Positions 23,360 to 47,051 are shown, numbered from the stretch's first letter. The stretch is DNA of 64,000 nucleotides from an uncultured archaeon (GCA_964632315.1 CAZWEM010000010.1:1-64000); one strand, 5' to 3'. Notes: generated from the letters alone by a model not told the origin. Numbers and translations: made by a program.

Positions 23360-23461
23360 GCGCGAGTGGTTTAGTGGTATAACGACACGCTCACACCGTG
23401 TAGGTCGAGGGTTCAAACTTATTGAAAAAGCTTCAATCTGGAACAATTCCCTCCTTGCGCA
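23360..23461 (+). tRNA. tRNA-Val(CAC) with a 30-nt intron at position 58/59 (T-loop); CCA not encoded
   Basis: Acceptor GCGCGAG/CTTGCGC+A, D-arm GTTT..TAAC, anticodon arm ACACG-CTCACAC-CGTGT, T-stem GAGGG/CCCTC; T-loop TTCAATT restored on removing 23417-23446. Confidence 0.93.
23417..23446 (+). other. BHB tRNA intron at a non-canonical position
   Basis: Central helix GTTC/GAAC, bulges AA^A and AA^T, internal stem ATTGAA/TTCAAT. Confidence 0.9.
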
Positions 23462-23612
23462 TTTCTTACCTCATCTCGAGCTTTAATTTCGGATAACCTT
23501 GAATTAATTTTATTAAAAAGTTATTAAATTTATTTAAGAGATCCTATAGACTCTTCATCTTTATTACATCGACAAAATAGAATATCATAGAAAATCACAT
23601 ATTCATAAAGAT

Positions 23613-25919
23613 TTGGTGATAATTTTATCAGAAAAAAGTGATTTTTTAGCCCATCCTCTTTTAAAAGAGAATAAAGTGATACGTCGAGCGTATCAAGAGA
23701 ATATATTCATTAATTGTTTAAAAAAAAATTGCATGGTGGTTATTCCTACTGGATTAGGAAAAACCATCCTAGCTTTAATGTTAAGCGTGTATCGTCTTTC
23801 AGAATATGAGAATTCAAAAGTAATCTTTTTAGCACCTACTAAACCATTAGTAGATCAACATCATGAATCATTTTTAGAATTAACTAAAATACCTAAAGAA
23901 GAAATGAGTGCTATCACTGGTGCAATATCTCCTGAAGACCGCATTAAAATATGGGACGATTTAAGAATTGTTTTTATGACTCCACAAGTCTTACAGAATG
24001 ACTTGATAACTCAAAGATATTCGATTAGCGATGTTTGTTTATTAATATTTGATGAGTGTCATCGGGCAACAGGGGAATATGCTTATTGTTTTATTGCTCA
24101 AAGATATATGGCTCTTTCTAAATATCCTCAAATATTAGCTTTAACTGCTTCTCCTGGATCTACAGAAGAGAAAATTAATGATATAAAGCAAAATTTGTAT
24201 ATTAACCATACAGAAGTCAGGACAGATTCTGATCGGGATGTAAAACCTTATATCCAAGATGTTGAGACAACTTGGATAAAAATTAAGTTGCCTGAGGAAT
24301 TCTTAGAGATAAAAAAAATATTAATTAAAAAATTTAAATTGACACTCCAATTCCTTAAACAAGCAAGTTTACTAAATAGCTCTGATGTAAATAAAGTTAG
24401 CAGAAAAGATTTAATTAAACTTAACAAGGTGATAAATAGTAATATTAACAATACAAATGATGAAAGGGAATTATCCCAACTATTTATTGCTAAGAAATAT
24501 CATGCTAATGCGATACGGCTATCACATATGGATGAATTAATTGAAACGCAGGGAATACACGCTTTAAAAGATTATATAGAGAAAAATAAACTGAAAATTA
24601 AAAAGAATACTGCAAATAAGTCCCTTAAGGAATTATTTAGGGATTTTGAATTTAAAAAGCTAATGCGACTAGTAGACGAAATTCACTCTACTGGTTTAGT
24701 ACATCCCAAACTGGAAAGATTAAAAGAAATCATACATAAACAGATGAAAGACAATCCCGAATCAAGGATTCTCGTGTTTTGCCATTATAGGGATTCAGTA
24801 AACAACATTGTTCGCTTTCTAAAGGAAGATTCATTAATAAAAGTTCACAAGTTTGTGGGGCAACAAACAAAAAGCTCTGATAAAGGATTAACCCAAAAAC
24901 AACAAATCCAATTGTTAAATGATTTTAAAGAAGGAACCTACAACACATTAATAGGTACGAGTGTTGCTGAGGAAGGATTAGACATTGCAGAATGTGATAT
25001 GGTAATTTTTTATGATGTAGTTCCAAGTGCAATTCGTTCAATACAGAGAAGAGGACGTACTGGTAGAAAAAGAGAAGGTAAAGTAATAATTTTAATAGCA
25101 GAAGGAACACGTGATGAAGGTTATTACTGGGCAGAAAGGAGAAAGGAACAAAACATGAAAAAAAGCTTGAATAATTTGAAAAATAATGATTCTAGAGAAC
25201 AATCGAGTCTATTAGAATATTTAGGGAATTCTAAGAAAAAAAATAAGGAAAATGAGAACTACCAAGATACTTCAGAATTGACTATTTTATGTGATAATAG
25301 AGAAACTGCTTCACCTGTAGTACGAATTCTCTCAACTTTAGGGATTAATATTATACTCAAACAATTGCCAGTGTCTGATTATGTAATCTCCAAATATATA
25401 GGAATAGAGCGAAAATCGGCGCAAGATTTCACGGATTCTATAAAGGATGGAAGAATATTTAATGAATTGATTAATCTTAAGGAGAATTTTGAAAACGCTA
25501 TTTTAATTTTGGAAGGAGATACCTTCTTAAACTCAAATTTAAGTGAAAATGCTCTCTATGGCACAATTAGTTCTATTATAGTAAAATTTGGAATAATGAT
25601 ATATCAAACCAAAAATTCCAAAGAAACTGCAAAATTCTTGTTTCATTTGACCAAAAAAGCCCAAACGGCATCATCTAGTCAAATCAAATTAAGATTTGAT
25701 AAAAAACCAAAAGAAGTTAAAGATTTATTGGAATATGTTATTGCTGGTCTGCCGGGGATAAATTCTCAGAGGGCAAAGAATCTACTTGAAAGATTCAAGA
25801 CTCTTCAAGAAATTTTCAATGCAACTATAGAAGATCTTATGAGTGTGGATAATATTGGAGAAAAAATTGCTCATGATATATATAAATGGAGTAGAACACA
25901 TTATAAAGAAGATTTTTGA
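23613..25919 (+). CDS. hef: Hef (FANCM-like SF2 helicase fused to ERCC4/XPF nuclease)
   Basis: PTGLGKT, DECH, TASPG, QRRGRTGR, ERKS nuclease motif, HhH tail. Confidence 0.95.
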   Translation: MVIILSEKSDFLAHPLLKENKVIRRAYQENIFINCLKKNCMVVIPTGLGKTILALMLSVYRLSEYENSKVIFLAPTKPLVDQHHESFLELTKIPKEEMSAITGAISPEDRIKIWDDLRIVFMTPQVLQNDLITQRYSISDVCLLIFDECHRATGEYAYCFIAQRYMALSKYPQILALTASPGSTEEKINDIKQNLYINHTEVRTDSDRDVKPYIQDVETTWIKIKLPEEFLEIKKILIKKFKLTLQFLKQASLLNSSDVNKVSRKDLIKLNKVINSNINNTNDERELSQLFIAKKYHANAIRLSHMDELIETQGIHALKDYIEKNKLKIKKNTANKSLKELFRDFEFKKLMRLVDEIHSTGLVHPKLERLKEIIHKQMKDNPESRILVFCHYRDSVNNIVRFLKEDSLIKVHKFVGQQTKSSDKGLTQKQQIQLLNDFKEGTYNTLIGTSVAEEGLDIAECDMVIFYDVVPSAIRSIQRRGRTGRKREGKVIILIAEGTRDEGYYWAERRKEQNMKKSLNNLKNNDSREQSSLLEYLGNSKKKNKENENYQDTSELTILCDNRETASPVVRILSTLGINIILKQLPVSDYVISKYIGIERKSAQDFTDSIKDGRIFNELINLKENFENAILILEGDTFLNSNLSENALYGTISSIIVKFGIMIYQTKNSKETAKFLFHLTKKAQTASSSQIKLRFDKKPKEVKDLLEYVIAGLPGINSQRAKNLLERFKTLQEIFNATIEDLMSVDNIGEKIAHDIYKWSRTHYKEDF

Positions 25920-26030
25920 AAGATAAAGTGCCATCAAAAATAAAAAAAATCACTGAACAAAAGATTTTAACCATAAATTTTTTTATTATATTATAATTAA
26001 ATTGAGTTTGAAATTTTCTGGTGACCAAAC

Positions 26031-26653
26031 ATAATAAAATTTAAAGTTGTAGTCGCCGGTGCTAAAAATTAATCCCGAATCTATCGGATATTGAGCAAGA
26101 CGTAGGGAAAACCTCCCTAATTAGGCGCTACGCAACAGGAAAGTTTGATAAGTCAACTTTGTCTACGATAGGTGTCGATTTTGAAACTAAAAAGGTAATT
26201 GTGGATGACATAGAGATCCTACTAAACATATGGGATTTTGCTGGTGAAAAAAAATTTAGATTATTATTACCTTCTTATGTTTCTGGGGCATCTGGGGCTT
26301 TAATTCTATATGACATCACAAATCGAGAGTCATTAAATGATCTTCACGATTGGATAAAAGTTATAACTTCGGTTCCAAACAGTCCCAAAACTAAAATCTT
26401 GGTTGAAGCAAAAATTGATTTAGAAGAACAAAGAGAAGTAAGTACGGAAGATGCTAAAATGTTTTTTGAAAAATACGGTTTTAAAGGAGATATAATTGGA
26501 ACGTCTTCAAAAACGGGTAAAAACGTTGAAACTGTTTTTGAAATGCTTGGACGTGAAATTTTGGAAAGTTCACTTAAAAAATGCCCTAACTGTGGTAAAT
26601 TATATCCCTTGGAATTAAAATTTTGCCAATATTGTGGACAAAAAACAAAATAA
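26031..26653 (+). CDS. Rab-like small GTPase with C-terminal zinc ribbon; intron-split, exons ~26031-26066 and 26099-26653 (start uncertain)
   Basis: Spliced product KFKVVVAGAK|DVGKTSLIRRYATGKF..STIGVDF..WDFAGE..AKID..TSSKTG..CPNC..CQYC; the ORF track start at 26159 lacks the P-loop. Confidence 0.85.
26067..26098 (+). other. Putative BHB-type intron (32 nt) in the GTPase P-loop
   Basis: Contains an in-frame TAA and shifts frame; relaxed central helix GCTA/GAGC, bulges AA^A and AA^G, internal hairpin; excision gives GAKDVGKT. Confidence 0.8.
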
Positions 26654-26708
26654 AAATATTTTTGATTTTTATAATTAAAATAACAATTATTACGTGGGGT
26701 AATTAATA

Positions 26709-27773
26709 ATGGATCATAGATTGGGCGAAGATATTGATGAGATAATTCGTAGATTATCGAAAGAGCAGATAAATTTTAAAGGAAAAGTAATTCTAATTAC
26801 TGGTGGCAATGGTTTTTTAGGTTCTTGGGTATGCGATGTATTAGTAAAGCAAGGTGCAAATTGCATTTGTATTGATAATCTCTCTTCAGGTAGATTTAGA
26901 AACATTGCTCATCTTCTTGATGAACCGAATTTTCGATTTATCAATCATGATATTGCAAAACCTATTTATTTTGGATTAACTCATCATCCAAACGGCATAT
27001 GTGTTGGAGATATTAAAAAAATTGATATTATTATGCACATGGCAAGTCGGGCTTCACCCTTCGAATTTAAAAGATATCCAATACCAATTTTAAAGAGCAA
27101 CACTTTAGGAACTATGAACGCTTTAGGGATAGCTAAAGCACATAACGCCTTATTCTTTTATACAAGTACATCCGAAGTATATGGAAATCCTCCAGATAGT
27201 GCTGTACCTACTTCTGAATCATACTTTGGATATGTTAATCCTGTTGGGCCTAGGAGTTGTTATGATGAATCAAAACGTGCTGGAGAGGCATTTGTTAAAG
27301 CATATGAACTTCAACATGGAATTAAGACGAAAATCGTGAGGATTTTTAACACCTCAGGTCCAAGAATCAGATATGGTCCAGAATACGGACGAGTGGTTCC
27401 AAATTTCATACATCAAGCTCTAAACGATGATGATATTACTGTTTTTGGTGATGGTTCTCAAACTAGGTCTTTCACTTATGTCACAGACGAAGTTGAGGGT
27501 ATTTTAAAAATAGTTCATAAGGATGAAGCTTTAGGGGAAGTAATAAATCTTGGTAACAACAAGGAGTATACCATTTTAGAATTAGCTAATCTTATCAAAG
27601 AATTGACTAATTCAAATTCCAAAATAGTTTTTAAACCATTACCAATTGATGATCCAGTTCGAAGATGTCCAGATATTGGTAAAGCTAAAACATTATTGAA
27701 TTGGGAACCTAGGACATCTTTAAAAACAGCATTAGAAAAGACCATAGCTTGGTTTAAAAAAAATGAAGAGTAA
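26709..27773 (+). CDS. UDP-glucuronate decarboxylase-like extended SDR
   Basis: TGGNGFLGS, STSEVYG, GPRSCYDESKR, GDGSQTRSF. Confidence 0.92.
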   Translation: MDHRLGEDIDEIIRRLSKEQINFKGKVILITGGNGFLGSWVCDVLVKQGANCICIDNLSSGRFRNIAHLLDEPNFRFINHDIAKPIYFGLTHHPNGICVGDIKKIDIIMHMASRASPFEFKRYPIPILKSNTLGTMNALGIAKAHNALFFYTSTSEVYGNPPDSAVPTSESYFGYVNPVGPRSCYDESKRAGEAFVKAYELQHGIKTKIVRIFNTSGPRIRYGPEYGRVVPNFIHQALNDDDITVFGDGSQTRSFTYVTDEVEGILKIVHKDEALGEVINLGNNKEYTILELANLIKELTNSNSKIVFKPLPIDDPVRRCPDIGKAKTLLNWEPRTSLKTALEKTIAWFKKNEE

Positions 27774-28272
27774 GGAGCCAGAGGAAGCAAATCTAAAATC
27801 TAAATTAGATTTTCAAAAATTTATTACGTTATTATTGATTTTTGGCTTAATTATTGTTTCTAGTTTTATAATATATAATATAGTTAAGCCAAAATCAGGA
27901 TATATTACATTTGGAATATTAGATTCGGAAAAAAGTGCACAATTCCAAAAAGAGTGTTTGGTTGGAGAAAATGTCTCTTTATATGTTTTTATTGGAAATC
28001 ACCTTAATCGAGAAATGAATTTCAGATTAGAGATCCTCAAAGGTGATAATAATACTTATTTAGCGTTAAATCAGCCTACAAACGGGTCTTCTTTTCTCAA
28101 TATAACTTCTCACATCTTGAATGGTTTGGATTGGATATCAAGTTTAATCGACGTTTCATTTACAGAGCCAGGTATCAATAAATTAATCATAGCTGAATTG
28201 TGGTTAATTAAAGCAGATTCCACTGAATACTTTTATAATTCTCTCTATCAAAGGTTAAATGTGACTCTTTAA
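27763..28272 (+). CDS. Membrane-anchored protein, DUF1616-like
   Basis: Single N-terminal TM, FGILDSEK..GENV..IGNH pattern, beta-rich C-terminal domain. Confidence 0.6.
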   Translation: MKSKEPEEANLKSKLDFQKFITLLLIFGLIIVSSFIIYNIVKPKSGYITFGILDSEKSAQFQKECLVGENVSLYVFIGNHLNREMNFRLEILKGDNNTYLALNQPTNGSSFLNITSHILNGLDWISSLIDVSFTEPGINKLIIAELWLIKADSTEYFYNSLYQRLNVTL

Positions 28273-29645
28273 GATTTGCTACCTATTATTTGAACATCTT
28301 CTATTCTTACGAAGGGTGCTCGAAATGGTCCATATTGTTGATTTTCCTTTGATATCATTTCTATTTTAGAAAATAAATCTAATAAATTAATACCGATCAT
28401 AGTCTCGTTTAATGCAGACTCTAATTTTCCATTCTGGATTAGGTTTCCATGTAAAATGAGTCCAGAAAAATCACCCGTTGAAATGTTCGGTCTGTCTCCA
28501 GTATAATCCAGTAAAATCCCTTTATCAACACTTTTAATGATTTCCTCTTTTTTAGTTGAACCTGAATTTAAAATGAAATTTGATATACCAATCCCAGGAA
28601 TTGATGCAAAAGAATGCCTAGACGCATTACCAGTACTTTCAATCCCTTCTTTATTAGCAGTATAACTATTATGCAATAATCCAGATTTTAAAAAACTTCC
28701 ATTTTTAATTATTTTTTTGTCATGACATGGCACACCTTCTGCATCAAAAGGCGCTGAACCTACTTCTCCATCAAGTAAAGCATTATCTTCGATGTTAAAA
28801 TCCTTTGAGCCAATTTTAGTCTCTTGTAGTCCAACAAGAAAGGTTCGTTTATGTTGGAAAGCTTCTGCGTTAATTGCAGATGCTAATGGTTTTAATATCA
28901 AGCTTATAACACCGTTTGGCGTCAAGATCACCGGACATCGCATATTCTTAATTTCAATTCGATTCAAATTTTGTTTTGCCCTGTTTAAAGCAGTATTAAT
29001 GATTTTTGTTGGATTTATACGATTTAGAAATCTACTACTTTGATAATCAAATCCAAATGATGTTTCTTTACTTATTTTATCCTTTACAATAACATTAGAA
29101 GAAAGGGAGCATGTTGTTTCCTTGCCACCTACTTCTATACCATTTGAATTAAAAATATAATGATGTGTTAAATTAGTTGAAAAGTTACCCGATTGAGAAA
29201 TAGCTAACTCATCTTCATCACATATTTTGATTAAATCACTAAAATAATTTGCAGATTCTTCAACTGATAAGTTCTCTATTTCAGAATCATACAAATCATT
29301 GACTTTGGGATATGAACTATGTGGAAATGGGAGATTAACAAAATCTGGATCCTCTGTTCCAGCTTTCATCATTTTAAAAGCATCTTTGATGATACGCTCT
29401 ATATTAGACCAATCCAATCGATTTGTAAAAGAAAATCCAACCGACCCATTTTTTCCAATAATTCTTACAGAGATTCCTTCGGCGCTTCCAATTTCACTAT
29501 GCTTGATAGAATTCTCATCAATTTCTATATTGAGGTATTCTCTAAGTTCAAAATAAAATTCAGTTGAAATAAGAGTTGAATCATAACGTTTTAAGTAATT
29601 ATAACATTTACTTGATAACTCAAAAACTTGGGAGGGATCTTTCAT
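28269..29645 (-). CDS. pmbA: TldE/PmbA family protein
   Basis: FDAEGVP, STGNASR, TGDFS; lacks HExxxH; paired with tldD. Confidence 0.9.
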   Translation of the reverse strand: MKDPSQVFELSSKCYNYLKRYDSTLISTEFYFELREYLNIEIDENSIKHSEIGSAEGISVRIIGKNGSVGFSFTNRLDWSNIERIIKDAFKMMKAGTEDPDFVNLPFPHSSYPKVNDLYDSEIENLSVEESANYFSDLIKICDEDELAISQSGNFSTNLTHHYIFNSNGIEVGGKETTCSLSSNVIVKDKISKETSFGFDYQSSRFLNRINPTKIINTALNRAKQNLNRIEIKNMRCPVILTPNGVISLILKPLASAINAEAFQHKRTFLVGLQETKIGSKDFNIEDNALLDGEVGSAPFDAEGVPCHDKKIIKNGSFLKSGLLHNSYTANKEGIESTGNASRHSFASIPGIGISNFILNSGSTKKEEIIKSVDKGILLDYTGDRPNISTGDFSGLILHGNLIQNGKLESALNETMIGINLLDLFSKIEMISKENQQYGPFRAPFVRIEDVQIIGSKS

Positions 29646-31097
29646 CTAATTAATTCCTCCTACAGTTAAATTATCGATTCTTATATATGGTCCACCATCA
29701 CAGACCCTAATTCCTTGCCCTCCTTTACCACAAATACCATCTGAATAGTTAAAAGTATCCATACTTCCAATTGCTGTTATTTTGTTTAAAACATCAAGCG
29801 TCATCCCACTGAATGACACGTCTCTCATAAGGTTCTTTTTTTCACCTTGTTCTATCACATAAGATAATCTACACTTAAATTGAAAGTTTCCAGTAGTGGG
29901 ATCAGTGTAGCCATATTGGAAATCTTCACATAATATTCCATTTTTAGTATCCTCAATCATTTCATCTAATCTCCAGTTACGAGGTTCTAAAAAGGTAAAA
30001 CCCATCCTTACTTGTGGTCTAGAACTGCTGGAGTTTGCTCTACCATGTCCATTTGGACTCATATTCATTCTGGATGCTGTTTCCAAATTATGTAGGTAAT
30101 TTTTAAGTATCCCATTTTCAATAAGAGCAGTTCTTTGAGCAGGAATTCCCTCCTCGTCGATGAAATAACTTCCAAATAGTTCATATTGAAGATTAAATTT
30201 TTTCGATTGACCAAAACTCGGATCATCAAAAACAGAGATTTCTTCCCCAGCAATTTTAGTATTCAATTTTTCTGCTAAGATACTTTCTTTATTTAAAATT
30301 AAGTCCGCCTCACAAGCATGCCCTAATGCTTCATGTATGAAAGTACCTGTTAATTTTGAATCGAGGATTACTTTAAATTTCCCTCCTACTGGAGATTGGG
30401 CACTTAATAAATCAACCGCTTGTTTAGCAGATTTATTACTAATTGTCATCGCGGTATCATTATCAACAATCTCAAAACCTCCAACGCCACCAATAGAATT
30501 CGTGCTATTCTGAATAACTCCTTTCTCTTGTGCATAGACTGAGGAAAATAATCTTACTATCTCTAATTCTTGGCTTACTTTACTACCAAATGAATCTCTG
30601 AATATTTGATTTAAATGGGTATCCATATAAATAGTTCGGGTGTTCTTAACCTTCTTTGAATAGCTTGAAGCTTTTAATTCATGATCTTTTACTAAATTGA
30701 TTTTTTCTTCCAAACTGATATCCTTTAGTTTTCTTTTGCTTTCAACTTTATGCTCCTCAATGTAAGATTTTTTATCCTTAATCTTAAATCGTAGTTTACT
30801 CAGAGATGACGATAATTTAGCTAATTTAACCGCTCTCTTAAAACCTTCTTTAAAGGTATCCATCGAAGGATCATTGATAATAAAAAATCCCCATCCTCCA
30901 TTAATAAATACTCTAATGCTGCTACCAATCAAATTATAAGTTGAAATTTCTTTACTTTTGCGATCCGAAAATTCTATAGCTGTTCCCTCATTGTATCTGG
31001 CTCTTAAATCCCAATAATCTACTTTATTGTTATCTTCTTGTTGTATAGAATGTAATAATTCATCATTAAATATTAGATTAAGACTGTTTTCCATCAT
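29646..31097 (-). CDS. tldD: TldD metalloprotease
   Basis: HEALGHACEAD, DEEG, GHGRA, CGKGGQ. Confidence 0.93.
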   Translation of the reverse strand: MMENSLNLIFNDELLHSIQQEDNNKVDYWDLRARYNEGTAIEFSDRKSKEISTYNLIGSSIRVFINGGWGFFIINDPSMDTFKEGFKRAVKLAKLSSSLSKLRFKIKDKKSYIEEHKVESKRKLKDISLEEKINLVKDHELKASSYSKKVKNTRTIYMDTHLNQIFRDSFGSKVSQELEIVRLFSSVYAQEKGVIQNSTNSIGGVGGFEIVDNDTAMTISNKSAKQAVDLLSAQSPVGGKFKVILDSKLTGTFIHEALGHACEADLILNKESILAEKLNTKIAGEEISVFDDPSFGQSKKFNLQYELFGSYFIDEEGIPAQRTALIENGILKNYLHNLETASRMNMSPNGHGRANSSSSRPQVRMGFTFLEPRNWRLDEMIEDTKNGILCEDFQYGYTDPTTGNFQFKCRLSYVIEQGEKKNLMRDVSFSGMTLDVLNKITAIGSMDTFNYSDGICGKGGQGIRVCDGGPYIRIDNLTVGGIN

Positions 31098-31179
31098 TTA
31101 AGCACATTATAAATTAAGCGAAACCATAAAAAAAAGTTCCCTAAAAAGAGTGAAGAAATATATTTTAAATATTTTGCTT

Positions 31180-31440
31180 TTAAAATTTATTGACTCTTGT
31201 AAGTTTATAATGACTTATAATATAATTTGATAACGTTTCTTTTTCTTCCCTTTCTTTTAGGTGCTTCATTATGCTAATAGCTTGGTTCATTGAACATTCT
31301 CTAGAAAACTTTAGAGAATTTTTAAATTGAAATGTACGATGACATTTCCAACATTTCCGTGATTTAATAATTTTATTACTATAATTCCATGCACCACAGT
31401 GATAACAACGGAAAAAATAAAATTTTCGAATATTAATCAT
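31180..31440 (-). CDS. Small zinc-ribbon protein (DUF1922-like)
   Basis: FRCYHCG...KCWKCH. Confidence 0.7.
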   Translation of the reverse strand: MINIRKFYFFRCYHCGAWNYSNKIIKSRKCWKCHRTFQFKNSLKFSRECSMNQAISIMKHLKEREEKETLSNYIISHYKLTRVNKF

Positions 31441-31624
31441 TTTCTAATTATAAATTAATATATAGCTAATGAATGGAAACAGCGATTATGATTACTAATT
31501 TTTAATATAATATTTAGAATATATATTTCTATATAGGTTAATTTATTAGATTATTGACTATTTTAGTCTATAGCATAAAATAATTAACTATATATTTTAA
31601 GATAATAAATATTGAATGGATTTT

Positions 31625-31723
31625 ATGAAAAAGAAAGTTCTTTTTGTTTTAATTTTTTTTTTAGGTTTATCTTGTGGAATAATTTTTGAAATGATTGACC
31701 ATATGATAAGATCTTTAATATAA
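31625..31723 (+). CDS. Putative small membrane peptide (32 aa; alternative ATG at 31616)
   Basis: Read by hand: MKKKVLFVLIFFLGLSCGIIFEMIDHMIRSLI; below the ORF-track cutoff; directly upstream of the ABC cluster. Confidence 0.4.
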   Translation: MKKKVLFVLIFFLGLSCGIIFEMIDHMIRSLI

Positions 31724-31771
31724 TGCAGGTGATCTAAGATCGAAGGTCACAAAGTCAAAAAAAGTCGCAAA

Positions 31772-32857
31772 TTGTCAATAGTTATTCTATTTATAGCAGG
31801 TTTTCTAGTTGGGGCTAGTAGTACTTTTATTATTTTACAAGGTGGTGAAAGTTCTATTCATATTAGTATAATTTATAGTTCCGAAAAAGCAAGTTGGATG
31901 ACAATTGCTTATACAAACTTTTTAAATGAATGGAACAATGAAAATCCGAATACTCCAATAACTATAGATATGCATCCTTATGGTTCTTCAGATTCAATAA
32001 TTAGTTTATTGAATGGAGAAATTTATCCAACTATTTGGAGTCCTGCCAGTTCTATTTGGTTACCATTCTTGAATACCAAATGGAATGAGCTTCATCCCGG
32101 TGAATCAATCGTAAATATTAATGAATCTGTCAGAATAATATACTCTCCAATTGTTATAGCCACATGGGAATCTTTCAATAAATCTCACCCTATTAAAGGT
32201 CTTGCAGATATAAGGAGTTTAAATTTAGATCCTAGTGTAAATATAAAAATGGCTCACACTGATCCTAGATTATCTAATTCGGGTTTTATGAGCGTAATTA
32301 TGGCTTTAGGAGTCGCTTCCGGAACTGCTCCGGAAAATTTAACAATGAATGATCTCTTGGACAAAAGTAATCAAGCTTGGTTAAGAGAATTCGAGTCTTC
32401 AGCGATCATGTATGGCAAATCTACGGGATTTTTAGCAAGTTATATGAGCACGCAAGGTCCTTCTGAATTGAATGTTGTTTTTTTATATGAAAATTTGATT
32501 AGGGACATATCAAGCAAAGCTGAAGCTGGAAAAATAATAGCAATTTATCCCGAGGGGGGAACCCTATATAGTGATCACCCGTTCTGCATTTTAAACGCAG
32601 ATTGGATATCACCAGAACAAAGAATGGTCGCAGAAGCATTCTTAGATTTTCTTAATGAAACCTCAACTGTTGTTTCTGCAACAGAATACGGATTTAGACC
32701 TATTAACCCATCTATACCACTTGATCCTAAGGTTTTTAATTACAAGATAAACGGAATTGCCTACAACCTCACTGTCCCAGAATTAAAAGCTCCCAAAGAT
32801 GGAAATGCTTTGTTGAATATACCAGATTTATGGTTATTGTGTAAAGCTACAGCATAA
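31772..32857 (+). CDS. ABC transporter substrate-binding protein (start may be ATC at 31739)
   Basis: N-terminal TM anchor; YSSEK, WSPASS, SPIVIA, TDPRLSNSG, YP.GGT..SDHPF. Confidence 0.85.
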   Translation: MSIVILFIAGFLVGASSTFIILQGGESSIHISIIYSSEKASWMTIAYTNFLNEWNNENPNTPITIDMHPYGSSDSIISLLNGEIYPTIWSPASSIWLPFLNTKWNELHPGESIVNINESVRIIYSPIVIATWESFNKSHPIKGLADIRSLNLDPSVNIKMAHTDPRLSNSGFMSVIMALGVASGTAPENLTMNDLLDKSNQAWLREFESSAIMYGKSTGFLASYMSTQGPSELNVVFLYENLIRDISSKAEAGKIIAIYPEGGTLYSDHPFCILNADWISPEQRMVAEAFLDFLNETSTVVSATEYGFRPINPSIPLDPKVFNYKINGIAYNLTVPELKAPKDGNALLNIPDLWLLCKATA

Positions 32858-32878
32858 ATTTGAAAGTAGGATGAAATA

Positions 32879-34531: not shown

Positions 34532-34534
34532 AAG

Positions 34535-35677: not shown

Positions 35678-35687
35678 TGATGACAAA

Positions 35688-36911: not shown

Positions 36912-36940
36912 AATTTGATATTATTAGGAGGAAAAAAAAT

Positions 36941-37939: not shown

Positions 37940-38608
37940 ATGATTGAAAATAAATATGATGAAGATGAGTTAAAAAACAAAAGTATCAATGAATTAACTC
38001 ATCTATTCATGGATATCATTCATGAACAAAATATACTTTTGATAGAGGGTATCGAGTCTCTCGTTAAAAACGATTTTACGAAATTTAAAAACAATTTAGA
38101 ATGTGTGGCTCAAACAACAACTGAAGTTCAAGTCAAGAAGGTATTTGAATCCAAAATCTTCAAAGCAAAATTAATGTTTTCTAAAGCAGATCGATTAAAA
38201 CTTTTCAGTAAAATTAATGATATCAAGAACATAGGTGAGTATTTAACAAATCGAATGCTACTATATCGCGTAATTTTTCCCGATAACGAGTTTAAGTTGC
38301 AACTTTCAAGTATTCTAAAATCATTGAAACTAATTTCAAACGAATTAACTATAGCTGTAAAGTTAATCGGAGATGATTTAGAGAAAGCATATGATATTTG
38401 TGAAGAAATTAAAGAAGAAAGAAGAAAAATGCGAATGGAAGAGTGGGAATTACTAAATCGACTATATAACTATGATATGGATTATATTTCTAGGACTTTC
38501 TTATATCTAAAGAATATGATAGAAGATATTATGATGCTAGCTGATCATATTAAAAATTTTTCTGAATACATCCAATTCCTTTCAGCTAAGTATTTGATTT
38601 TCAAATAA
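37940..38608 (+). CDS. Divergent DUF47 / PhoU-like protein
   Basis: Helical, F.KADRLKL and ADHIKN patterns; lies between DUF47 and PiT genes. Confidence 0.65.
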   Translation: MIENKYDEDELKNKSINELTHLFMDIIHEQNILLIEGIESLVKNDFTKFKNNLECVAQTTTEVQVKKVFESKIFKAKLMFSKADRLKLFSKINDIKNIGEYLTNRMLLYRVIFPDNEFKLQLSSILKSLKLISNELTIAVKLIGDDLEKAYDICEEIKEERRKMRMEEWELLNRLYNYDMDYISRTFLYLKNMIEDIMMLADHIKNFSEYIQFLSAKYLIFK

Positions 38609-38617
38609 GGGTTTTTT

Positions 38618-39649
38618 ATGGCGTCAGATTTTACTCAATTGATTATTGTTGTATTAATCATTCTCGCAATTGGATTAGCATTTTCGATTGGGGCTAATGA
38701 TGAAACTCTATCTGCATTGGTCGGAACTGGAGCGTTAAAGTTTAAATTAGCTTTATTAATTGGTGGAATTGCTATAGGAAGCGGAATGATCATAACTAGT
38801 GGAGGGTTTGTCGCCAAAACAGTGGGGTCCGATATTTTAGGGAAAGGCTTGACCTACTCTACTTCTATGCTTCTTACTGTGTTAATCAGTAGCATTATTT
38901 GGTTGGTTATAGGAAGTTTTGCTGGAATTCCACTTAGTAGTACTCATTCTTTAGTGGGGAGTGTTGTAGGAGTTGTAATAGTTTATTCAATAACTCAAGA
39001 GGTTGTGAGTCCTGAAAATGCCTTTAATTGGGATAAATTAGGAAGTGTTATTTTAAGCTGGTTTTTTTCTCCTCTTTTTGGATTTGTAATTACCTATCTT
39101 CTTTTTAGGATTTTAGCTAAATTTTATCTCTCACGTTTAAAAGGATTAAATCAAATAGAGAAAGCAGAAAGGTCTTTCAAATGGTTGTTATTAGTTGCTA
39201 TTATTTTTGCTGAGATATGGGTTGGTGCTAATTCAGGTGAAGCTTTAGGTATCCTATATGGACTTTTAGATAATGGATCTTTAGCGGTTCAAGAGTATTT
39301 TTTTTATGCTGTAATTTGTGGTATTTTTGCTTTTTTAGGAATTTATATTGCTGCTCGATTTGTGATACGAAATTTAGCCTCTCAAATGACTGACTCTCGA
39401 CCAAGTGAGGGTCTAATTATTCAAACCAGTTCTGCAATAATTTTGATGATCGCTACCTTATTTGGTTTACCAATATCTCATAGCCACGTAATTGTGTTTT
39501 GTATAATTGGAATGAACATTGCTCAAAAAAAGGAAGTTGAATATAAGTATCTTGGAAAGATGGGTATTTTTTGGATTTTAACATTTCCTATTGCTGCTCT
39601 TCTAGCAGGGATCATTTACTTCAGCTTCAGTACGATAAGTTTTATTTAA
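38618..39649 (+). CDS. Inorganic phosphate transporter (PiT family)
   Basis: GAND, GIPLSSTHSLVG, GLPISHSH; multi-TM. Confidence 0.9.
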   Translation: MASDFTQLIIVVLIILAIGLAFSIGANDETLSALVGTGALKFKLALLIGGIAIGSGMIITSGGFVAKTVGSDILGKGLTYSTSMLLTVLISSIIWLVIGSFAGIPLSSTHSLVGSVVGVVIVYSITQEVVSPENAFNWDKLGSVILSWFFSPLFGFVITYLLFRILAKFYLSRLKGLNQIEKAERSFKWLLLVAIIFAEIWVGANSGEALGILYGLLDNGSLAVQEYFFYAVICGIFAFLGIYIAARFVIRNLASQMTDSRPSEGLIIQTSSAIILMIATLFGLPISHSHVIVFCIIGMNIAQKKEVEYKYLGKMGIFWILTFPIAALLAGIIYFSFSTISFI

Positions 39650-39715
39650 AAAATCTATTCAAAATATATTTAAAATATTTTAATCTTAAGTATTAATATA
39701 CGGAAGTGGAAAAAA

Positions 39716-40399
39716 ATGGGTTCATTAATAGAATTTTTGAAGAGAGAAACAGCTTTAAATGCATTAGAACGATCCATTAAACATGCGAAGAAAGTCCAAG
39801 AGTGCGTTAGAGAGTTGGAAAAAGGAATAAATGCGTTGTTAAGGGAAAAAAACCCGATAAAAGCCGAAGAATTCTTTATAAAAGTTGATTCATTAGAGGG
39901 TGAAGCAGATAAGTTGAGAAGAGACATTCAAAAAGATATTTCTAGGGGAGAATTAAACCCTAGCATCAGGCAAGATTTATCACATTTAGTAAAGAGAATG
40001 GATGATGTTGCAAATTGTTGTACAGGTGTTGCTCGGCGTATAAATACTGTACCAATTGTATTTTGGGAACAAACAAGTGAAAAAACAATAGATACTGTCC
40101 TTGAAATTATGAAAACTACGGTAGAATGTGCTGATTTTTTGGATAAGATTGTTATCGATCTCTTAGGGGAACGAAAAAACATCAAAGAATATGCAAGACA
40201 GATAAATCAAAATGAACATAAAGTAGATCTGCTAAATATTAAGCTGAGAAAAAGCCTACAAGAGACAGAATATCATGTTAACTTCTTCACAATTTTTACC
40301 ATTGGAAATATTTTTGACATTTTAGAAGCAATCTCAGATTCTATTGAGGTGGTAGCTGATTATATCATGGTTTTATTGACAAGCGCAAATATTCTTTAA
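39716..40399 (+). CDS. DUF47 / TIGR00153 family protein
   Basis: LEGEADKLRR, RQDL..LVKRMDDVA, EHKVD, SDSIEVVAD. Confidence 0.9.
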   Translation: MGSLIEFLKRETALNALERSIKHAKKVQECVRELEKGINALLREKNPIKAEEFFIKVDSLEGEADKLRRDIQKDISRGELNPSIRQDLSHLVKRMDDVANCCTGVARRINTVPIVFWEQTSEKTIDTVLEIMKTTVECADFLDKIVIDLLGERKNIKEYARQINQNEHKVDLLNIKLRKSLQETEYHVNFFTIFTIGNIFDILEAISDSIEVVADYIMVLLTSANIL

Positions 40400-40493
40400 T
40401 TTCAAGTAATGCTTTTCATATTAATAAAAATAAGAATAATAACTTATCAGTGATTATTTCAATTATAATATAATTTACCTTTTTAAACTTGAA

Positions 40494-41852
40494 ATGGAGC
40501 ATAAATTCGTAAATCCAATTGAAACAAGATATAGGACTGAAATTGCTTCAATTTTTACTGAAGATAAAAAGTTAGAGAATTGGCTAAAGGTTGAAGCAGT
40601 TTTAGCCACAGTTCATGCTCAACTTGGTAATATCCCTAAGGAAGCGGCAGAAGAAATTAAATCAAAAGCTAATTTAAATTATGTCAAGCTCAAAAGAGTA
40701 AAAGAAATAGATCAAGAGATTCATCATGATTTAATGGCAATGGTGAAAGCCTTGAGTGAGAAATGTAAAGGAGATGCTGGTAAATTCGTGCATTTGGGTG
40801 CTACAAGTTATGATATTGAGGATACAGCCATTGCATTACAACTTCGAGAGGCATTATTTCATATAAAGGATTCATTAAATTCCCTATTGAGAGAACTTAT
40901 ACAAATTTTAGAAGATCGAAAGGAACTTGTTTGCATAGGACGAACTCACGGACAACATGCAATTCCTACCACATATGGCATGAGATTTGGTATATGGGCT
41001 TATGAAATAGACAGGCAACTTGACAGGTTAGAAAATGCAATTGAACGAATCTCATATGGAAAAATGTCTGGTGCTGTGGGAACAATGGCGAGTTTCGGAG
41101 AAAAAGGTATCGAGTTACAAACTCTGGTTATGAAAGAACTTGGAATCAATCCAGCATTAATTGCAAATCAAGTGATACAAAGAGACTGCCACGCTGAAGT
41201 AATATTTTTAACATCTTTAATAGGGCAGTCACTTGCAAAAATGGCACGTCAATTTCGCATTCTTCAAAGAAATGAGATAGCTGAAATTTTTGAGCCCTTT
41301 AAAGAATCCCAAGTAGGTAGTTCCACAATGCCTCACAAGAGGAATCCACATAAGTCTGAACGAATATGTAGTTTAGCTAGAGTGTTAAAATCAAATGTAA
41401 TCGTTGCTTTGGATAATGTTATATTAGAGGATGAGAGAGATTTAACAAATTCTGCTAACGAAAGGATTGTATTTGGAGAGAATTTCGTGTTATTAGATTT
41501 TATGCTGCAGCAAATGATCAATATTCTAAGAGGAGCAGTATTCGATGAAAATAAAATTGAAAAAAACCTAAATCTTACGAAAGGGGCTTGTTTATCAGAA
41601 AAAGTAATGATAGAATTGGTAAAACGGGGTATAGGAAGACAAGAAGGTCATGAAATGTTAAGAAAAGCCGCGATTAAATCAAGAACTGGTAATCGATTTA
41701 TTAAGGATATATTATTAGAAAATGATGAAATTAAAGCTAAGTTTTCTAAACAAGAAATTTCTGAACTATTAGATCCCCATAAATATATCGGTCTAGCAAT
41801 TTTACAAGTGGAAATTTTAATAGATTATCTAAAAAAGAAGTATAATCTTTGA
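40494..41852 (+). CDS. purB: Adenylosuccinate lyase
   Basis: HLGATSYDI, GRTHGQHA, GSSTMPHKRNP. Confidence 0.97.
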   Translation: MEHKFVNPIETRYRTEIASIFTEDKKLENWLKVEAVLATVHAQLGNIPKEAAEEIKSKANLNYVKLKRVKEIDQEIHHDLMAMVKALSEKCKGDAGKFVHLGATSYDIEDTAIALQLREALFHIKDSLNSLLRELIQILEDRKELVCIGRTHGQHAIPTTYGMRFGIWAYEIDRQLDRLENAIERISYGKMSGAVGTMASFGEKGIELQTLVMKELGINPALIANQVIQRDCHAEVIFLTSLIGQSLAKMARQFRILQRNEIAEIFEPFKESQVGSSTMPHKRNPHKSERICSLARVLKSNVIVALDNVILEDERDLTNSANERIVFGENFVLLDFMLQQMINILRGAVFDENKIEKNLNLTKGACLSEKVMIELVKRGIGRQEGHEMLRKAAIKSRTGNRFIKDILLENDEIKAKFSKQEISELLDPHKYIGLAILQVEILIDYLKKKYNL

Positions 41853-41854
41853 AA

Positions 41855-43045
41855 ATGTCAGAAGATGAAGATTTATATTCTAAGTTGGGAGTATCATCCA
41901 AAAAAGAAGATGTCCATAAAGCGATAAGAGATATCAACAAAGGATTATTCCCTGGAGCCTTCTGTAAAGTTGTAGAAGATGTTAGAGGGAGAAAAGATTA
42001 TTGCTCTATTTTTCATTCTGATGGTGCAGGAACAAAATCCAGTCTAGCGTATATGTACTATAAAGAAACCGGAGATATTTCAATATTTAAAGGAATTACT
42101 AGAGATGCGATGATAATGAATATTGATGATCTTTTATGTGTAGGTGCAACAGATAAATACTTTTTATCAAATAATATTGGGAGAAACCCAAAACTAATAT
42201 CAGGAGAGGTTATAGCTGAAATTATTGCTGAATATCATTCTTATAGTAGTAAATTAAAGGATTTTGGTCTAAAAATCGAAGTATGCGGAGGAGAAACCGC
42301 GGATGTAGGAGATATCGTTAAAACTCTGCTCGTTGACGCATCAATTTTTACAACTATGAAAAGGGAAGACGTGATCGATGCGAGTAATATTAAACCCGGA
42401 GATGTTATAATTGGACTTGCTAGTGACGGACAAACAACCTATGAAGAACAATATAATAGCGGAATAGGCAGTAATGGTTTGACCCTTGCTCGGCACGGAG
42501 TTTTATCTGATCAATATATTAAAAAGTACCCCGAGTGCTTTAATAACGCTATCGAAAAGAAGTACATTTTTTTTGGAAAGTATTTAATTGAGGATAAAGT
42601 CCCCGGATTAAATTTAACAATTGGTAAAGCACTTCTATCTCCAACGAGAACTTATGCTCCTGTTGTGTTAGAAATTTTGAAAGAGTATCCAAAAGATGTT
42701 CATGCAATTATCCATAACACTGGAGGAGGTCAGACGAAGGTTATAAATTTCGGAAAAGGAATAAGATTCATAAAAAATAATTTATTTAAACTCCCGAAGA
42801 TATTTGAAGTAATTCAAAATTCTTCGGAAACAAATTGGCGAGAAATGTATCAAGTCTTTAATATGGGGAACCGTTTAGAGTTATATTGTAAAGAAAATAT
42901 AGCTAAATCAATTATAGGTATATGCAGCAAATTTAAACTATATGCTAAAATAATCGGACAATGTGAAAGGTCGAATGAAGGGAATAAAAATATAGTTGAA
43001 ATTAAATCAGAATTTGGTTCATTTTCATACAGAGAAAATCAATGA
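41855..43045 (+). CDS. purM: AIR synthase (phosphoribosylformylglycinamidine cyclo-ligase)
   Basis: DGAGTK, MNIDDLLCVGA, GGETADVGD, SNGLTLARH, MYQVFNMG. Confidence 0.92.
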   Translation: MSEDEDLYSKLGVSSKKEDVHKAIRDINKGLFPGAFCKVVEDVRGRKDYCSIFHSDGAGTKSSLAYMYYKETGDISIFKGITRDAMIMNIDDLLCVGATDKYFLSNNIGRNPKLISGEVIAEIIAEYHSYSSKLKDFGLKIEVCGGETADVGDIVKTLLVDASIFTTMKREDVIDASNIKPGDVIIGLASDGQTTYEEQYNSGIGSNGLTLARHGVLSDQYIKKYPECFNNAIEKKYIFFGKYLIEDKVPGLNLTIGKALLSPTRTYAPVVLEILKEYPKDVHAIIHNTGGGQTKVINFGKGIRFIKNNLFKLPKIFEVIQNSSETNWREMYQVFNMGNRLELYCKENIAKSIIGICSKFKLYAKIIGQCERSNEGNKNIVEIKSEFGSFSYRENQ

Positions 43046-43130
43046 GATTATTTCAAGTAAAGCATTTTAAAGTTTAATAATTTATATTCTTATCACTAAT
43101 ATTAATTTATAATTAGTCAATTGATTTTTT

Positions 43131-44186
43131 ATGGCAAGAAAAGAAAGTTCCATTAAGCAATTAATTAAGCAGAGATTTTATTTTTTATTAGAAGTAATTA
43201 TCGTTTTTTTTGGTATATTCTTCTTTTTACTCCCCACGATTTTCATCCCATACAATGAGAACTTGGATGTATCATATGGAATCTATTTCTATGCATTGCG
43301 TGCGATATTAGTATTTGTAGCTATATCATTATTTCTCTACGTTGCAAATTTTGCGATGGAAAAGAGAAGAAGAACAATTATTGTAGAAAGTGATTCAAGT
43401 CCATCAAAAAATTTTAGGAATCTTTTCTCTATTAAGAAATCAAATCTTAAATATCAAATGTTGTATGGAACTTTACTACTTTTCCTTTTATTCATCCCTT
43501 TAGACTATTTTACATATCTACTTTTACCCCAGATGATCCCTTTTTCTGCAAATTCTTTACTGCTCAATGTAACGAATTCTTATCTAGGAAAATCCTATTT
43601 TGTTTTTATTATATCTGCTATTATTATTCAATTTTCAGTGGCATTTTATGAAGAAGCTATTTCAAGGGGTTTTTTAACAAACAGAGGGAATGATTATGTT
43701 CCAAAAATGTCTGCAATCATGATATCTTCGGTTTTTTTTGGAATGGGTCATTTTACTTATATTTTAAACATTGCTTCTCTTGGATATTTAATAATGTTAC
43801 CTTTAATTTGGTGTATTGAAGCAATTGTGATAGGAATCATTCTTTCAATGCTCGTTATGAGGAGGAAATGGATTTTTCCAGCAATTTTTGCTCATGCAAT
43901 AAATAATATTATTTCAGCGCATGTGATATGGAATTATTTTCAAGGTAATGGCTTTACAATACTCGCAATATTTTTTTACCCTATTTTACTTGTTATTGGA
44001 TTAATTTTATTGATTTTGAATTATTCATTAATCCGAGAAGCCTTATCATTAGGTTTTAAGGATTTAAAAGTGTATTTTAAGAATAACGCCCGCATTAAAG
44101 AACCAACTGATCATAAAATAATCCGTATAATGTTAGATATCTTATTTGGGGTCCTAATATTCATATTTGGATACTTTTTGACATAG
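43131..44186 (+). CDS. CPBP (Rce1/Abi) intramembrane metalloprotease
   Basis: EEAISRG, FGMGH, HAINN motifs; multi-TM. Confidence 0.9.
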   Translation: MARKESSIKQLIKQRFYFLLEVIIVFFGIFFFLLPTIFIPYNENLDVSYGIYFYALRAILVFVAISLFLYVANFAMEKRRRTIIVESDSSPSKNFRNLFSIKKSNLKYQMLYGTLLLFLLFIPLDYFTYLLLPQMIPFSANSLLLNVTNSYLGKSYFVFIISAIIIQFSVAFYEEAISRGFLTNRGNDYVPKMSAIMISSVFFGMGHFTYILNIASLGYLIMLPLIWCIEAIVIGIILSMLVMRRKWIFPAIFAHAINNIISAHVIWNYFQGNGFTILAIFFYPILLVIGLILLILNYSLIREALSLGFKDLKVYFKNNARIKEPTDHKIIRIMLDILFGVLIFIFGYFLT

Positions 44187-45240: not shown

Positions 45241-45342
45241 TAATTGTGTTCTTTTATGCCTTTTACCAAAAAAATGAATTAAAATCAATTATTATATATT
45301 AGAGATGTAATATTTAATACATAAGTTTTCTAAATTTCTTTT

Positions 45343-46380
45343 ATGAAAGCGGCTTACATTCTCAAACATGGAGATCTAAATAATTTAATCGTTGGAGATT
45401 TAGATCAACCAAATATTAGTGAAAAAGAAATTTTAATTGAAACCAAGTTCAGTGCTCTCAATCATATTGATCTTTTTATCATAAAAGGATGGCCAGGATT
45501 AGAATTGAAAATGCCTCATATTTTAGGGAGTGATGCGAGTGGAGTCGTGGCTGAAGTGGGTTCATCTGTAGCTACTGTTAAAAAAGGAGATAGAGTAGTG
45601 ATCAACCCAGGTTTAAGTTGTGGAACTTGTGATTTCTGCCTTTCTGGAAAACAGAACTTCTGTAAAAATTTTTCAATTATGGGAGAAAATCAATGGGGAA
45701 CCCATGCTGAGTACTTTGTATTACCCGAAGTGAATGCCATAAAACTACCTTTAGATGTGAATTATGAATCTGCAGCTGCTGCTCCTTTAACATTCTTGAC
45801 TGCTTGGAGGGCATTAAAAAGTCAAGCAAACCTTCAGAATGGAGAAACAATAGTTATTCACGGTGCAGGAGGAGGTGTATCTACTGCGGCTATACAAATA
45901 GCTAAATTTTTAGGTGCAACTGTAATTACCACAACAAGTAGTGTTAAGAAGGTTGAGATAGCAAAAAAATTGGGTGCTGATTTTGTGATTAATTATAATG
46001 AAGATCCAAATTATGATGCTTATATATATAAAAATATAATGAATCGAGAGGGCGTCGATGTTGTATTAGATAGCGTGGGTAAGCACACATTTAAAAAGAG
46101 TTTAAGATTGCTTAAACCGGGTGGTCGTATGATTATACCGGGATCTACCACTGGTCCGATGAGTGAAGTAGATCTTAGACAAATATTTTGGAAACAACTA
46201 GAAATTAAAGGCACAACAATGAGTAATCAAAGTGAATTTAGAGAGGTCATGAAACTAATCTTTAAGGCAAAGTTAAATCCAGTAATAGATAGAATTTATC
46301 CCTTGAGTGAGATCAAAGAAGCTGAAGAATACCTCCAAGAGGGAAAACAGTTTGGAAAAGTTTTACTGAAAATTAAGTAA
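45343..46380 (+). CDS. Zinc-binding MDR-family dehydrogenase
   Basis: PHILGSD, CGTCDFC...C structural Zn site, GAGGGV, FGKVLL. Confidence 0.92.
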   Translation: MKAAYILKHGDLNNLIVGDLDQPNISEKEILIETKFSALNHIDLFIIKGWPGLELKMPHILGSDASGVVAEVGSSVATVKKGDRVVINPGLSCGTCDFCLSGKQNFCKNFSIMGENQWGTHAEYFVLPEVNAIKLPLDVNYESAAAAPLTFLTAWRALKSQANLQNGETIVIHGAGGGVSTAAIQIAKFLGATVITTTSSVKKVEIAKKLGADFVINYNEDPNYDAYIYKNIMNREGVDVVLDSVGKHTFKKSLRLLKPGGRMIIPGSTTGPMSEVDLRQIFWKQLEIKGTTMSNQSEFREVMKLIFKAKLNPVIDRIYPLSEIKEAEEYLQEGKQFGKVLLKIK

Positions 46381-47051
46381 TAATTCCAAATTGGTTTCGC
46401 GTGAATTTCAATACCTTTTGCGAAATAATGGATTCAAATCCCCCGTAAAAATGGTCTGCACCCTCAATAATAAATTTTGATTTTGGTTCCATGTAAGAAT
46501 CGTAATGGAAGTCAAATCTATCAAAAGAAGCAATATTATCCTTATCTCCTTGAATAAAAAATTTAGGTTTTGTAGTTTGGGTTGATTCCTTAAATCCTTC
46601 TCCCATAAAGTCCCAAGGAAAAGATATTGCACAGAAACCTATGACTATTTCGGAATAATTGACAAGGCTACATCCAATAGCAGCTCCATACGAGTATCCA
46701 CATATTAAAATCTTATCAAAATTTTCATTAGTCAAATAATCAATGCAAGTTTTAACATCTGTTAACTCTCCATTTCCTTCATATTGTTTACCAGCTGATT
46801 TTCCTACTCCTCGAAAATTAAAACGTAGACATGAAATATTATTTGTTAGTAATTCATTAAATATGCTCGATATTACATTATTATACATATTACCCCCATA
46901 TTTTCCCTTTCCTTGAGAAAGTCAAGTGAAATTGAGGATGGGGGTGGCAAAGTAATACTATTTTATTTATTTGATTTGTCTTCTTACGAGAAATTTCAGC
47001 TTCTAAAACATTATCTTCTCCTTTAATTATTATGTTTTTAGAGTCAAGCAT
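46373..47051 (-). CDS. Alpha/beta-fold hydrolase, intron-split (exons 47051-46933 and 46901-46373; 215 aa spliced)
   Basis: Exon 1 MLDSK..LEAE..LLCHPHPQ joins exon 2 YGGNMYNNV..RFNFRGVGKS..GYSYG..QGDKD..GADHF. Confidence 0.9.
46902..46932 (-). other. Putative BHB-type intron (31 nt) in the hydrolase gene
   Basis: Central helix UCCU/GGGA, bulges CA^A and AA^A, intron stem UUUC(A)CUUGA/UCAAGGAAA; the unspliced frame stops at TAA. Confidence 0.88.

Follow-up and report, generated by a model that had tools for sequence, protein, structure and literature searches.

Candidate tRNA-type introns in protein-coding genes of a Loki-type Asgard archaeon

Archaeal protein genes are usually treated as uninterrupted, and a stretch of DNA in which two protein genes and a tRNA gene each carry a short insert of the same general shape raises the question of whether the machinery that splices tRNA also acts on messenger RNA. 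We studied positions 23360-47051 of a 64,000-nucleotide (nt) stretch, hereafter the window, which is contig C10 of the draft genome G000; the inserts lie in the T-loop of a tRNA-Val(CAC) gene (30 nt), in the P-loop of a small GTPase gene (32 nt) and in an alpha/beta hydrolase gene (31 nt). The genome is a metagenome-assembled draft of 4.45 Mb in 119 contigs, with 32% G+C, a completeness rating of 99.5% and a contamination estimate of 8.6%. Judged by its closest public relatives, which are labelled Promethearchaeota or Promethearchaeia and include 'Loki_b31' and 'Loki_b32', the host is a Loki-type Asgard archaeon. We consider it likely, with a probability of about 0.8, that the three inserts are introns of the bulge-helix-bulge (BHB) type or of its relaxed HBh' form, that they are obligatory in both mRNAs, and that they would be removed by the tRNA-splicing endonuclease EndA and the ligase RtcB.

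Each insert had a single exact match in the window (Table 1), and 0 of 100 shuffles matched. The first-pass annotation of this DNA had quoted them at these lengths and had described them as starting with A, ending in AA, containing an internal hairpin and pairing with the upstream exon as a BHB; all of these features were seen in the three inserts, the GTPase insert taking the HBh' form, and both coding inserts break the frame within a conserved motif, as had also been stated (the P-loop in the GTPase and HPHPQ↓YGG in the hydrolase). In all three, exon bases -6 to -3 face intron bases -6 to -3. The resulting central helix has 4 bp in the tRNA and the hydrolase, while that of the GTPase (GCUA:GAGC) has 3 bp and one A.G mismatch in G000 and 4 bp in the orthologs of G023, G035 and G025. 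All three inserts have an inner helix (h'); as for the outer helix (h), the hydrolase has a strong one, the tRNA a short one and the GTPase none. The 5' bulges are clean throughout; the 3' bulges of the hydrolase and the tRNA are of 3 nt only if a short outer helix is allowed. If each bulge is cut after its second base, the pieces released measure exactly 30, 32 and 31 nt and the tRNA, P-loop and HPHPQYGG motif become whole again, and the intron-free orthologs of all three genes show the same junctions as those predicted after removal.

Insert boundaries were set by homology and not by the motif. All ten homology-defined inserts have at least three of four central pairs together with an inner helix, and seven have all four pairs; the corresponding background in the genome is 0.021 per position for the looser pattern and 0.003 for a full 4-bp helix. 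None of the ten fits the mirror-image geometry, and nine end in AA. No Rfam family matched the inserts. Neither Rfam nor ARAGORN reported anything in the window, the tRNA-Val(CAC) gene being missed because it is interrupted.

The hydrolase provides the fullest comparative record. Removal of the 31 nt joins VLLCHPHPQ to YGGNMYNN and gives a 215-amino-acid (aa) alpha/beta hydrolase reading ...CHPHPQYGGNMYNN..., while the frames are broken if the message is unspliced. Among 30 orthologs of the genus, 21 carry an insert at the identical site (three of 30 nt, four of 31 nt and fourteen of 33 nt), and in the remaining nine HPHP(Q/S/L) is followed directly by (Y/F)GG. Precise removal yields an intact hydrolase open reading frame (ORF) of 208-225 aa in 21 of 21 carriers, and in every carrier exon 1 comes into frame after removal and is conserved (LEAE.F, CHPHPQ). 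The intron ends ATTT and AAAGGGAAA are invariant, while synonymous positions have reached saturation (dS >1.2) in comparisons of G000 with the other carriers. In an alignment of 19 distinct sequences the UCCU:GGGA central helix never varies and is paired throughout (100%), and covariation is seen in the inner hairpin, at columns 32:51 and 36:48 (CG/UA/UG at one pair and GC/AU/UA at another), with a covariation score above 500 of 500 shuffles and above all slid controls. The fold constrained to a BHB has an energy of -22.1 kcal/mol, 0.5 from the free optimum of -22.6, and none of 200 shuffles was as good (z = -3.1). Carriers and non-carriers cluster in the gene tree, which requires at least four changes, of which well-supported branches force only one. 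The outer helix pairs bases 46933-46950 with 46888-46901 on the minus strand, so that the Pro/His codons CCC CCA face the Gly codons GGG GG; here the protein motif itself supplies the outer RNA helix of the intron.

Interruption of the tRNA follows the same plan. Positions 23360-23461 less the 30 nt are a tRNA-Val(CAC), and over its first 58 nt the gene shares 93-97% identity with intron-free orthologs, which ARAGORN identifies as tRNA-Val(cac); an uninterrupted version occurs in three genus members, each of them so called, whereas ARAGORN passes over the interrupted genes. The geometry is that of a textbook BHB, with exon GUUC paired to intron GAAC, bulges of AA↓A and AA↓U, and the hairpin inside. 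Most genus orthologs have the insert at the same site, and the sequence of its hairpin varies between species while the pairing is kept; it is missing in the orthologs L063-L065 and L076. Relatives of this gene (L066-L082) have up to three introns, at about position 30/31 in the anticodon stem (after its 5' strand), at about 44/45 in the variable region and in the T-loop. When ARAGORN was run on the whole genome it found 11 tRNA genes without its intron mode and 29 with it, and the majority of the tRNA genes of G000 are probably interrupted at non-canonical sites.

For the GTPase, removal of 32 nt joins KFKVVVAGAK to DVGKTSLIRRY and restores a GxxxxGKT P-loop. Unspliced, the frame of exon 1 meets a TAA two codons into the insert, and the frame of exon 2 has a TAA that spans the boundary between exon 1 and the insert. 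The ortholog set combined 30 genus genomes with 80 species-level records, partly overlapping, and only 4 of these about 110 orthologs carry an insert, of 32 nt in G000, 38 nt in G023 and G035, and 33 nt in G025; it always lies between the codon for K and that for D or N, and insert-free orthologs read AGAK directly followed by (N/D)VGKT. Alignment to insert-free relatives, which the first-pass annotation had put forward as a check, thus gave the predicted junctions both in this GTPase majority and in the nine hydrolase orthologs. The insert of G025 is clearly different in sequence and contains an in-frame TAA, and the exon and intron strands of the central helix change in compensation, GCUA:UAGU in G023 and G035 against GCCA:UGGU in G025. 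The downstream frame is open in 4 of 4 carriers. Those insert versions of the hydrolase and the GTPase that are themselves in frame (30 or 33 nt) each contain an in-frame stop. Since the outer helix is lacking, the GTPase motif is of the relaxed HBh' form; the zinc-ribbon matches in its exon 2 are weak, all under Pfam's own cut-offs. Both messages, if unspliced, are frame-shifted inside an essential motif, so that splicing would be obligatory for both proteins, and the junction peptides VVVAGAKDVGK (GTPase) and HPHPQYGGNMYNN would depend on excision.

Table 1. Positions of the exons, candidate introns and associated signals of the three interrupted genes in the window. An arrow marks a cut or junction.
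Feature	Position	Strand	Basis
tRNA-Val(CAC) 5' exon, 57 nt: acceptor, D-arm, anticodon arm, variable region, T-stem 5' strand, first five T-loop bases	23360-23416	+	sequence reading, ortholog match
T-loop intron, 30 nt, position about 58/59; GUUC:GAAC, bulges AA↓A and AA↓U, inner hairpin AUUGAA/UUCAAU	23417-23446	+	folding, orthologs
tRNA-Val(CAC) 3' exon: last two T-loop bases, T-stem 3' strand, acceptor 3' strand, discriminator A	23447-23461	+	sequence reading, orthologs
GGTGA Shine-Dalgarno-like motif, 6 nt upstream of ATA at 26031	26020-26024	+	sequence reading, orthologs
Small GTPase exon 1, 12 codons, ATA ATA AAA TTT AAA ... GCT AAA; probable near-cognate ATA start	26031-26066	+	translation, orthologs
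Intron, 32 nt, splitting the P-loop between K and D; GCU:AGC and A.G mismatch, bulges AA↓A and AA↓G, inner hairpin CCGA/UCGG	26067-26098	+	relaxed HBh', orthologs
Small GTPase exon 2, DVGKTS..., Ras-family domain and C-terminal zinc ribbon, stop included	26099-26653	+	Pfam Ras 8.2e-40 from model position 10
Hydrolase exon 2: third base of Gln codon, then YGGNMYNN... through stop	46373-46901	-	Pfam Hydrolase_4 and Abhydrolase_11 from model position 12
Intron, 31 nt, within HPHPQ↓YGG; UCCU:GGGA, bulges CA↓A and AA↓A, inner UUUC:GAAA and CUUGA:UCAAG, exon-exon outer helix	46902-46932	-	folding, orthologs, covariation
Hydrolase exon 1: ATG at 47051; 39 codons and two bases, ending CAC CCC CAT CCT CA	46933-47051	-	translation after removal

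To evaluate which enzymes could act on such structures, we considered the genes that the genome encodes. Two genes of the tRNA-intron-endonuclease family (PF01974) are present, an alpha-like one on C28 (207 aa) and a beta-like one on C8 (205 aa), together with a single RtcB gene on C26. The C28 protein is closest to the chains 3p1z_B, 3ajv_B, 2cv8 and 2zyz_B, which we take to be crenarchaeal EndA subunits from Aeropyrum (3p1z_B, 3ajv_B), Sulfolobus (2cv8) and Pyrobaculum (2zyz_B); the C8 protein is more distant, with a weak beta-subunit match. The pair would fit a two-subunit EndA of the crenarchaeal type, in agreement with the published Asgard enzyme, which is an (alpha-beta)2 form with a loop tied to broad specificity (PMC5829648).

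We propose that in each precursor RNA the four exon bases upstream of the 5' cut would pair with the four intron bases upstream of the 3' cut, and that this pairing would set each cut site in a short bulge with the intron hairpin inside. The alpha and beta subunits of EndA would then cleave each bulge after its second base, and the exons would be ligated by RtcB to give a normal tRNA-Val, a GTPase with an intact P-loop and an intact alpha/beta hydrolase. The same process would serve other protein genes of G000, probably tens. From the comparative evidence, the intron interpretation is well supported for the hydrolase and the tRNA and reasonably supported for the GTPase.

Several observations weigh against it. 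The 3' bulge of the hydrolase is a clean 3 nt only with an outer helix of 1 bp and is otherwise 5 nt, and the free-energy optimum of the tRNA region retains the T-stem instead of the central helix. The GTPase motif is weak, with its A.G mismatch and no outer helix, and its fold is no better than that of shuffled sequences (z = +1.07; 172 of 200 shuffles equal it). A scan of the whole genome for the motif and joined ORFs shows no excess over a mirror-image decoy, and for these loci we infer the cutting and joining of the RNA, as well as the enzyme responsible; a look-up of RNA runs for 23300-33299 returned none. Finally, the spliced GTPase has no ATG, GTG or TTG start. This last objection is mitigated by the orthologs, since 22 of the 77 intact (intron-free) ones have ATA or ATT in that position; over the ortholog set the homologous start codon is ATG in 48, ATA in 13, ATT in 9 and TTG in 5, and a GGTG(A/G) motif lies 6-8 nt upstream of ATA or ATT in G000 and in many genus orthologs without an ATG there. 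These alignments suggest that ATA/ATT is a near-cognate start codon kept by conservation, which may act as a throttle on translation.

An alternative is that the inserts are retained, the genes being either pseudogenes or the source of truncated proteins started downstream (at ATG 46888 in the hydrolase and TTG 26159 in the GTPase). Gene callers do annotate such truncated ORFs, the window hydrolase being recorded at 171 aa beside many public entries of 169-171 aa, which stand apart from a group of 208-216 aa. Yet this leaves the hydrolase with an exon 1 that is open and conserved in 21 carrier species and that makes sense in frame only after removal, and with intron ends far more conserved than synonymous sites; the truncated forms would lose the P-loop in the GTPase, or the first strand and the HPHP..GG motif in the hydrolase. 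Pseudogene-level decay, against which the first-pass annotation had cautioned, was not found: the ORFs are intact after removal, and the ratio of nonsynonymous to synonymous substitution rates (dN/dS) is 0.17 among hydrolase carriers (median of 76 pairs) and 0.056 for the GTPase (closest carrier pair, the sole unsaturated pair). We regard retention as very unlikely. Public records bear out the further claim that standard annotation truncates such genes. Homologs of the hydrolase form two length classes, of 167-171 aa and 208-220 aa, and entries of the short class start with the Met of GGxM, indicating that insert-bearing genes are systematically mis-annotated as truncated. In the protein collection searched, no full-length entry was identical to exon 2 of the window hydrolase, the closest full-length entry being 71% identical.

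Removal could also take place at the RNA level by some other nuclease and ligase, or by self-cleavage, and the GTPase motif is so relaxed that its recognition by EndA is uncertain. To our knowledge, all known self-splicing introns need more than thirty bases, and the 30-32-nt inserts had no match in Rfam. EndA substrates have this geometry and are cut after the second base of the bulge, as in cbf5 (PMC2738675), the tRNA intron shares it, and both EndA subunits and RtcB are encoded, so that we give this possibility an equally small chance.

Translational bypass or recoding, in which the ribosome would hop or shift across the insert in an unspliced RNA as in phage T4 gene 60 or the mitochondrial 'byp' elements, fits superficially, since those too are short hairpin inserts skipped without harm to the protein, and the codons on either side here share two of three bases (CAA/AAA in the hydrolase and AAA/CAA in the GTPase). 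Bypassing requires matched take-off and landing codons, both in T4 gene 60 and in the yeast mitochondrial byps, but the codons here are not identical, and the hydrolase take-off codon is followed by TTT and not by a stop. Nor does bypass explain the invariant 4-bp helix between exon and intron, the conserved bulges, the compensatory change across exon and intron, or insert lengths that vary freely from 30 to 38 nt, and it cannot apply to the same structure in a tRNA gene, which is never translated; its chances are slimmer still. A sequencing or assembly artefact, or a freshly landed mobile element resembling a miniature inverted-repeat transposable element, is hardly worth entertaining, even for a metagenome draft in many contigs with some estimated contamination, given that up to 20 further species-level genomes, each assembled independently, have the same inserts in the same places, that contigs of another public run aligning along 23300-43299 had no gap or joint reported at the tRNA or GTPase insert (at a low depth of 1-12, with short contigs and the kind of run unrecorded), and that there are no terminal repeats, no second copies and no target duplications beyond one to three ambiguous bases.

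To estimate how common introns removed by EndA and RtcB might be in protein genes of this genome, we scanned it for the BHB pattern combined with 15-codon coding windows and obtained 19,531 hits, as compared with 19,111 for a mirror-image decoy. A stricter filter that required ORFs to be joined left 6,424 candidate sites without a clear surplus over the mirror image (at 25-40 nt, for example, 404 real and 358 mirror), and adding the 'A...AA' ends brought no improvement over the decoy. The scan recovers the hydrolase intron exactly, yet it cannot count introns, and because it shows no excess over the decoy the estimate of prevalence rests on a homology-based sample. A comparison of the window with syntenic DNA of six relatives, covering 56.5 of 64 kb at the protein level, picked out one real split, that of the hydrolase; that of the GTPase was missed because its first exon has 12 codons. 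Four split-gene candidates were set aside in the window: 9466-9468 is an ordinary boundary of two adjacent genes that is present in relatives too, 22745-23287 combines the end of an Rpo6/K-like gene with the antisense of a converging neighbour, and 21719-21749 and 59368-59380 had matches only at E of about 1e-3.

As an unbiased sample, we compared 234 genes on 320 kb of the relative G018 with the whole G000 genome and found two further interrupted G000 genes, with seven inserts in all. An acetyl-CoA-synthetase-like gene (C25:3-820, minus strand) has six BHB-type inserts of 30-42 nt, and a gene of the EF-2/EF-G family, 79% identical to its G018 ortholog, has one 30-nt insert with an in-frame stop and BHB geometry (C25, about 29359-29388, minus strand), placed some 70 codons inside the GTP-binding domain. 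Each of the seven conforms to the real BHB (at least 3 of 4 pairs in the central helix and at least 4 of 6 in the inner helix), and none fits the mirror image. Four of the six inserts in the acetyl-CoA-synthetase-like gene are stop-free in the tblastn frame, and unspliced read-through would add about 10-14 residues each. Two other candidates, C25:19377 (21 nt with a TGA) and C4:24913, have no BHB and low identity and were left uncounted. At C1:47196-47271 (plus strand), 59 additional bases break the frame of a gene that shares about 90% identity with its ortholog in G018. No simple BHB is seen at the boundaries defined by homology, and the bases may represent two neighbouring introns or one that is longer or composite. 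With four interrupted protein genes among roughly 290 examined, the data suggest that G000 holds tens of such genes, a rough lower bound because inserts common to G000 and G018 escape the test.

The first-pass annotation had gone on to suggest that mRNA splicing is widespread in this genome and that introns move between tRNA and mRNA. The former claim stands in outline, by virtue of the two additional genes and their seven inserts in the 234-gene sample, although the motif scan did not reach a genome-wide count, while the latter found no support. No insert has a second copy in the 4.45 Mb; the similarity of the tRNA and hydrolase introns is at chance level (496 of 1000 shuffles score as high), and that of the tRNA and GTPase introns is marginal (6 of 1000) and was not taken as homology. 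The TTGA..TCAA stem to which it had pointed is indeed present in both the tRNA and the hydrolase introns, but it is one of many stems found at these sites in relatives. Unique inserts, chance-level similarity and a freely varying stem leave exchange between tRNA and mRNA unsupported. At the GTPase site, different inserts occur in two separate clades, the hydrolase tree setting G025 apart from G000, G023 and G035, and gain may for this reason have recurred at one site.

It is tempting to go further and propose that in Loki-type Asgard archaea the tRNA-splicing machinery serves obligatory mRNA introns genome-wide, in tens of genes with up to six per gene, mostly in the most conserved motifs of core proteins, repeatedly gained and lost and possibly gained again at the same site; we hold this broader proposal only tentatively and think it rather doubtful. 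If it were true, it would argue for active, site-selective intron gain in the lineage nearest to eukaryotes. Should many ordinary and essential mRNAs need EndA and RtcB before translation, Asgard gene calling would be systematically wrong at these loci, Asgard archaea would possess a real layer of mRNA splicing based on protein enzymes, and the origin of split genes and of the gap between transcription and translation on the way to eukaryotes would become testable in living relatives. The hydrolase set, in which 21 carriers and 9 non-carriers can be compared at a single site and the hairpin covaries, is ready test material.

Among known systems, the HAC1/XBP1 mRNA of eukaryotes undergoes unconventional cytoplasmic splicing, in which Ire1 cuts and tRNA ligase or RtcB joins. 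The introns proposed here resemble it in being spliceosome-independent, in lying in an mRNA between stem-loops, in their joining by a tRNA ligase and in the change of frame on removal; HAC1/XBP1 differs in its nuclease, Ire1, and in being a single regulated, stress-inducible target, whereas the present loci show no sign of regulation. Bypass elements likewise are short, hairpin-bearing inserts absent from the protein, but their codons match, unlike those here, and they have no counterpart in a tRNA. The non-canonical tRNA introns of Thermoproteales and Asgard archaea share the size class, the motif and the T-arm position, together with several introns per gene in relatives and repeated gain and loss (PMC11291895; preprint 10.64898/2026.10.13.758758). 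Both of those studies are confined to tRNA genes and leave protein-coding hosts unmentioned, and a search of the available library for Asgard mRNA introns found no paper, the Asgard intron papers treating tRNA genes only.

The nearest counterpart is the BHB intron of cbf5 pre-mRNA in the Desulfurococcales and Sulfolobales of the Crenarchaeota, in the library searched the only archaeal gene for which pre-mRNA splicing is confirmed, other cases being merely predicted (PMC2738675). Both are short introns, here proposed ones, in a protein-coding gene with a relaxed BHB, cut or predicted to be cut after the second bulge base and placed inside a catalytic motif, and in both cases the intron is present or absent among related species, the host has a heteromeric EndA and the genes were mis-annotated as frameshifted (PMC2738675). 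The cbf5 intron is known from one gene family of hyperthermophilic Crenarchaeota, with proof from cDNA (PMC2738675), whereas the present introns, known from sequence comparison, affect no fewer than four unrelated genes within a single Loki-type Asgard genome (the GTPase, the hydrolase, the acetyl-CoA-synthetase-like gene with six, and the EF-2-like gene). None of the host genes here is cbf5, and the host phylum is Promethearchaeota, not Crenarchaeota. Taken together, the cbf5 intron and the present introns would be of the same mechanism class, in different genes and a different phylum.

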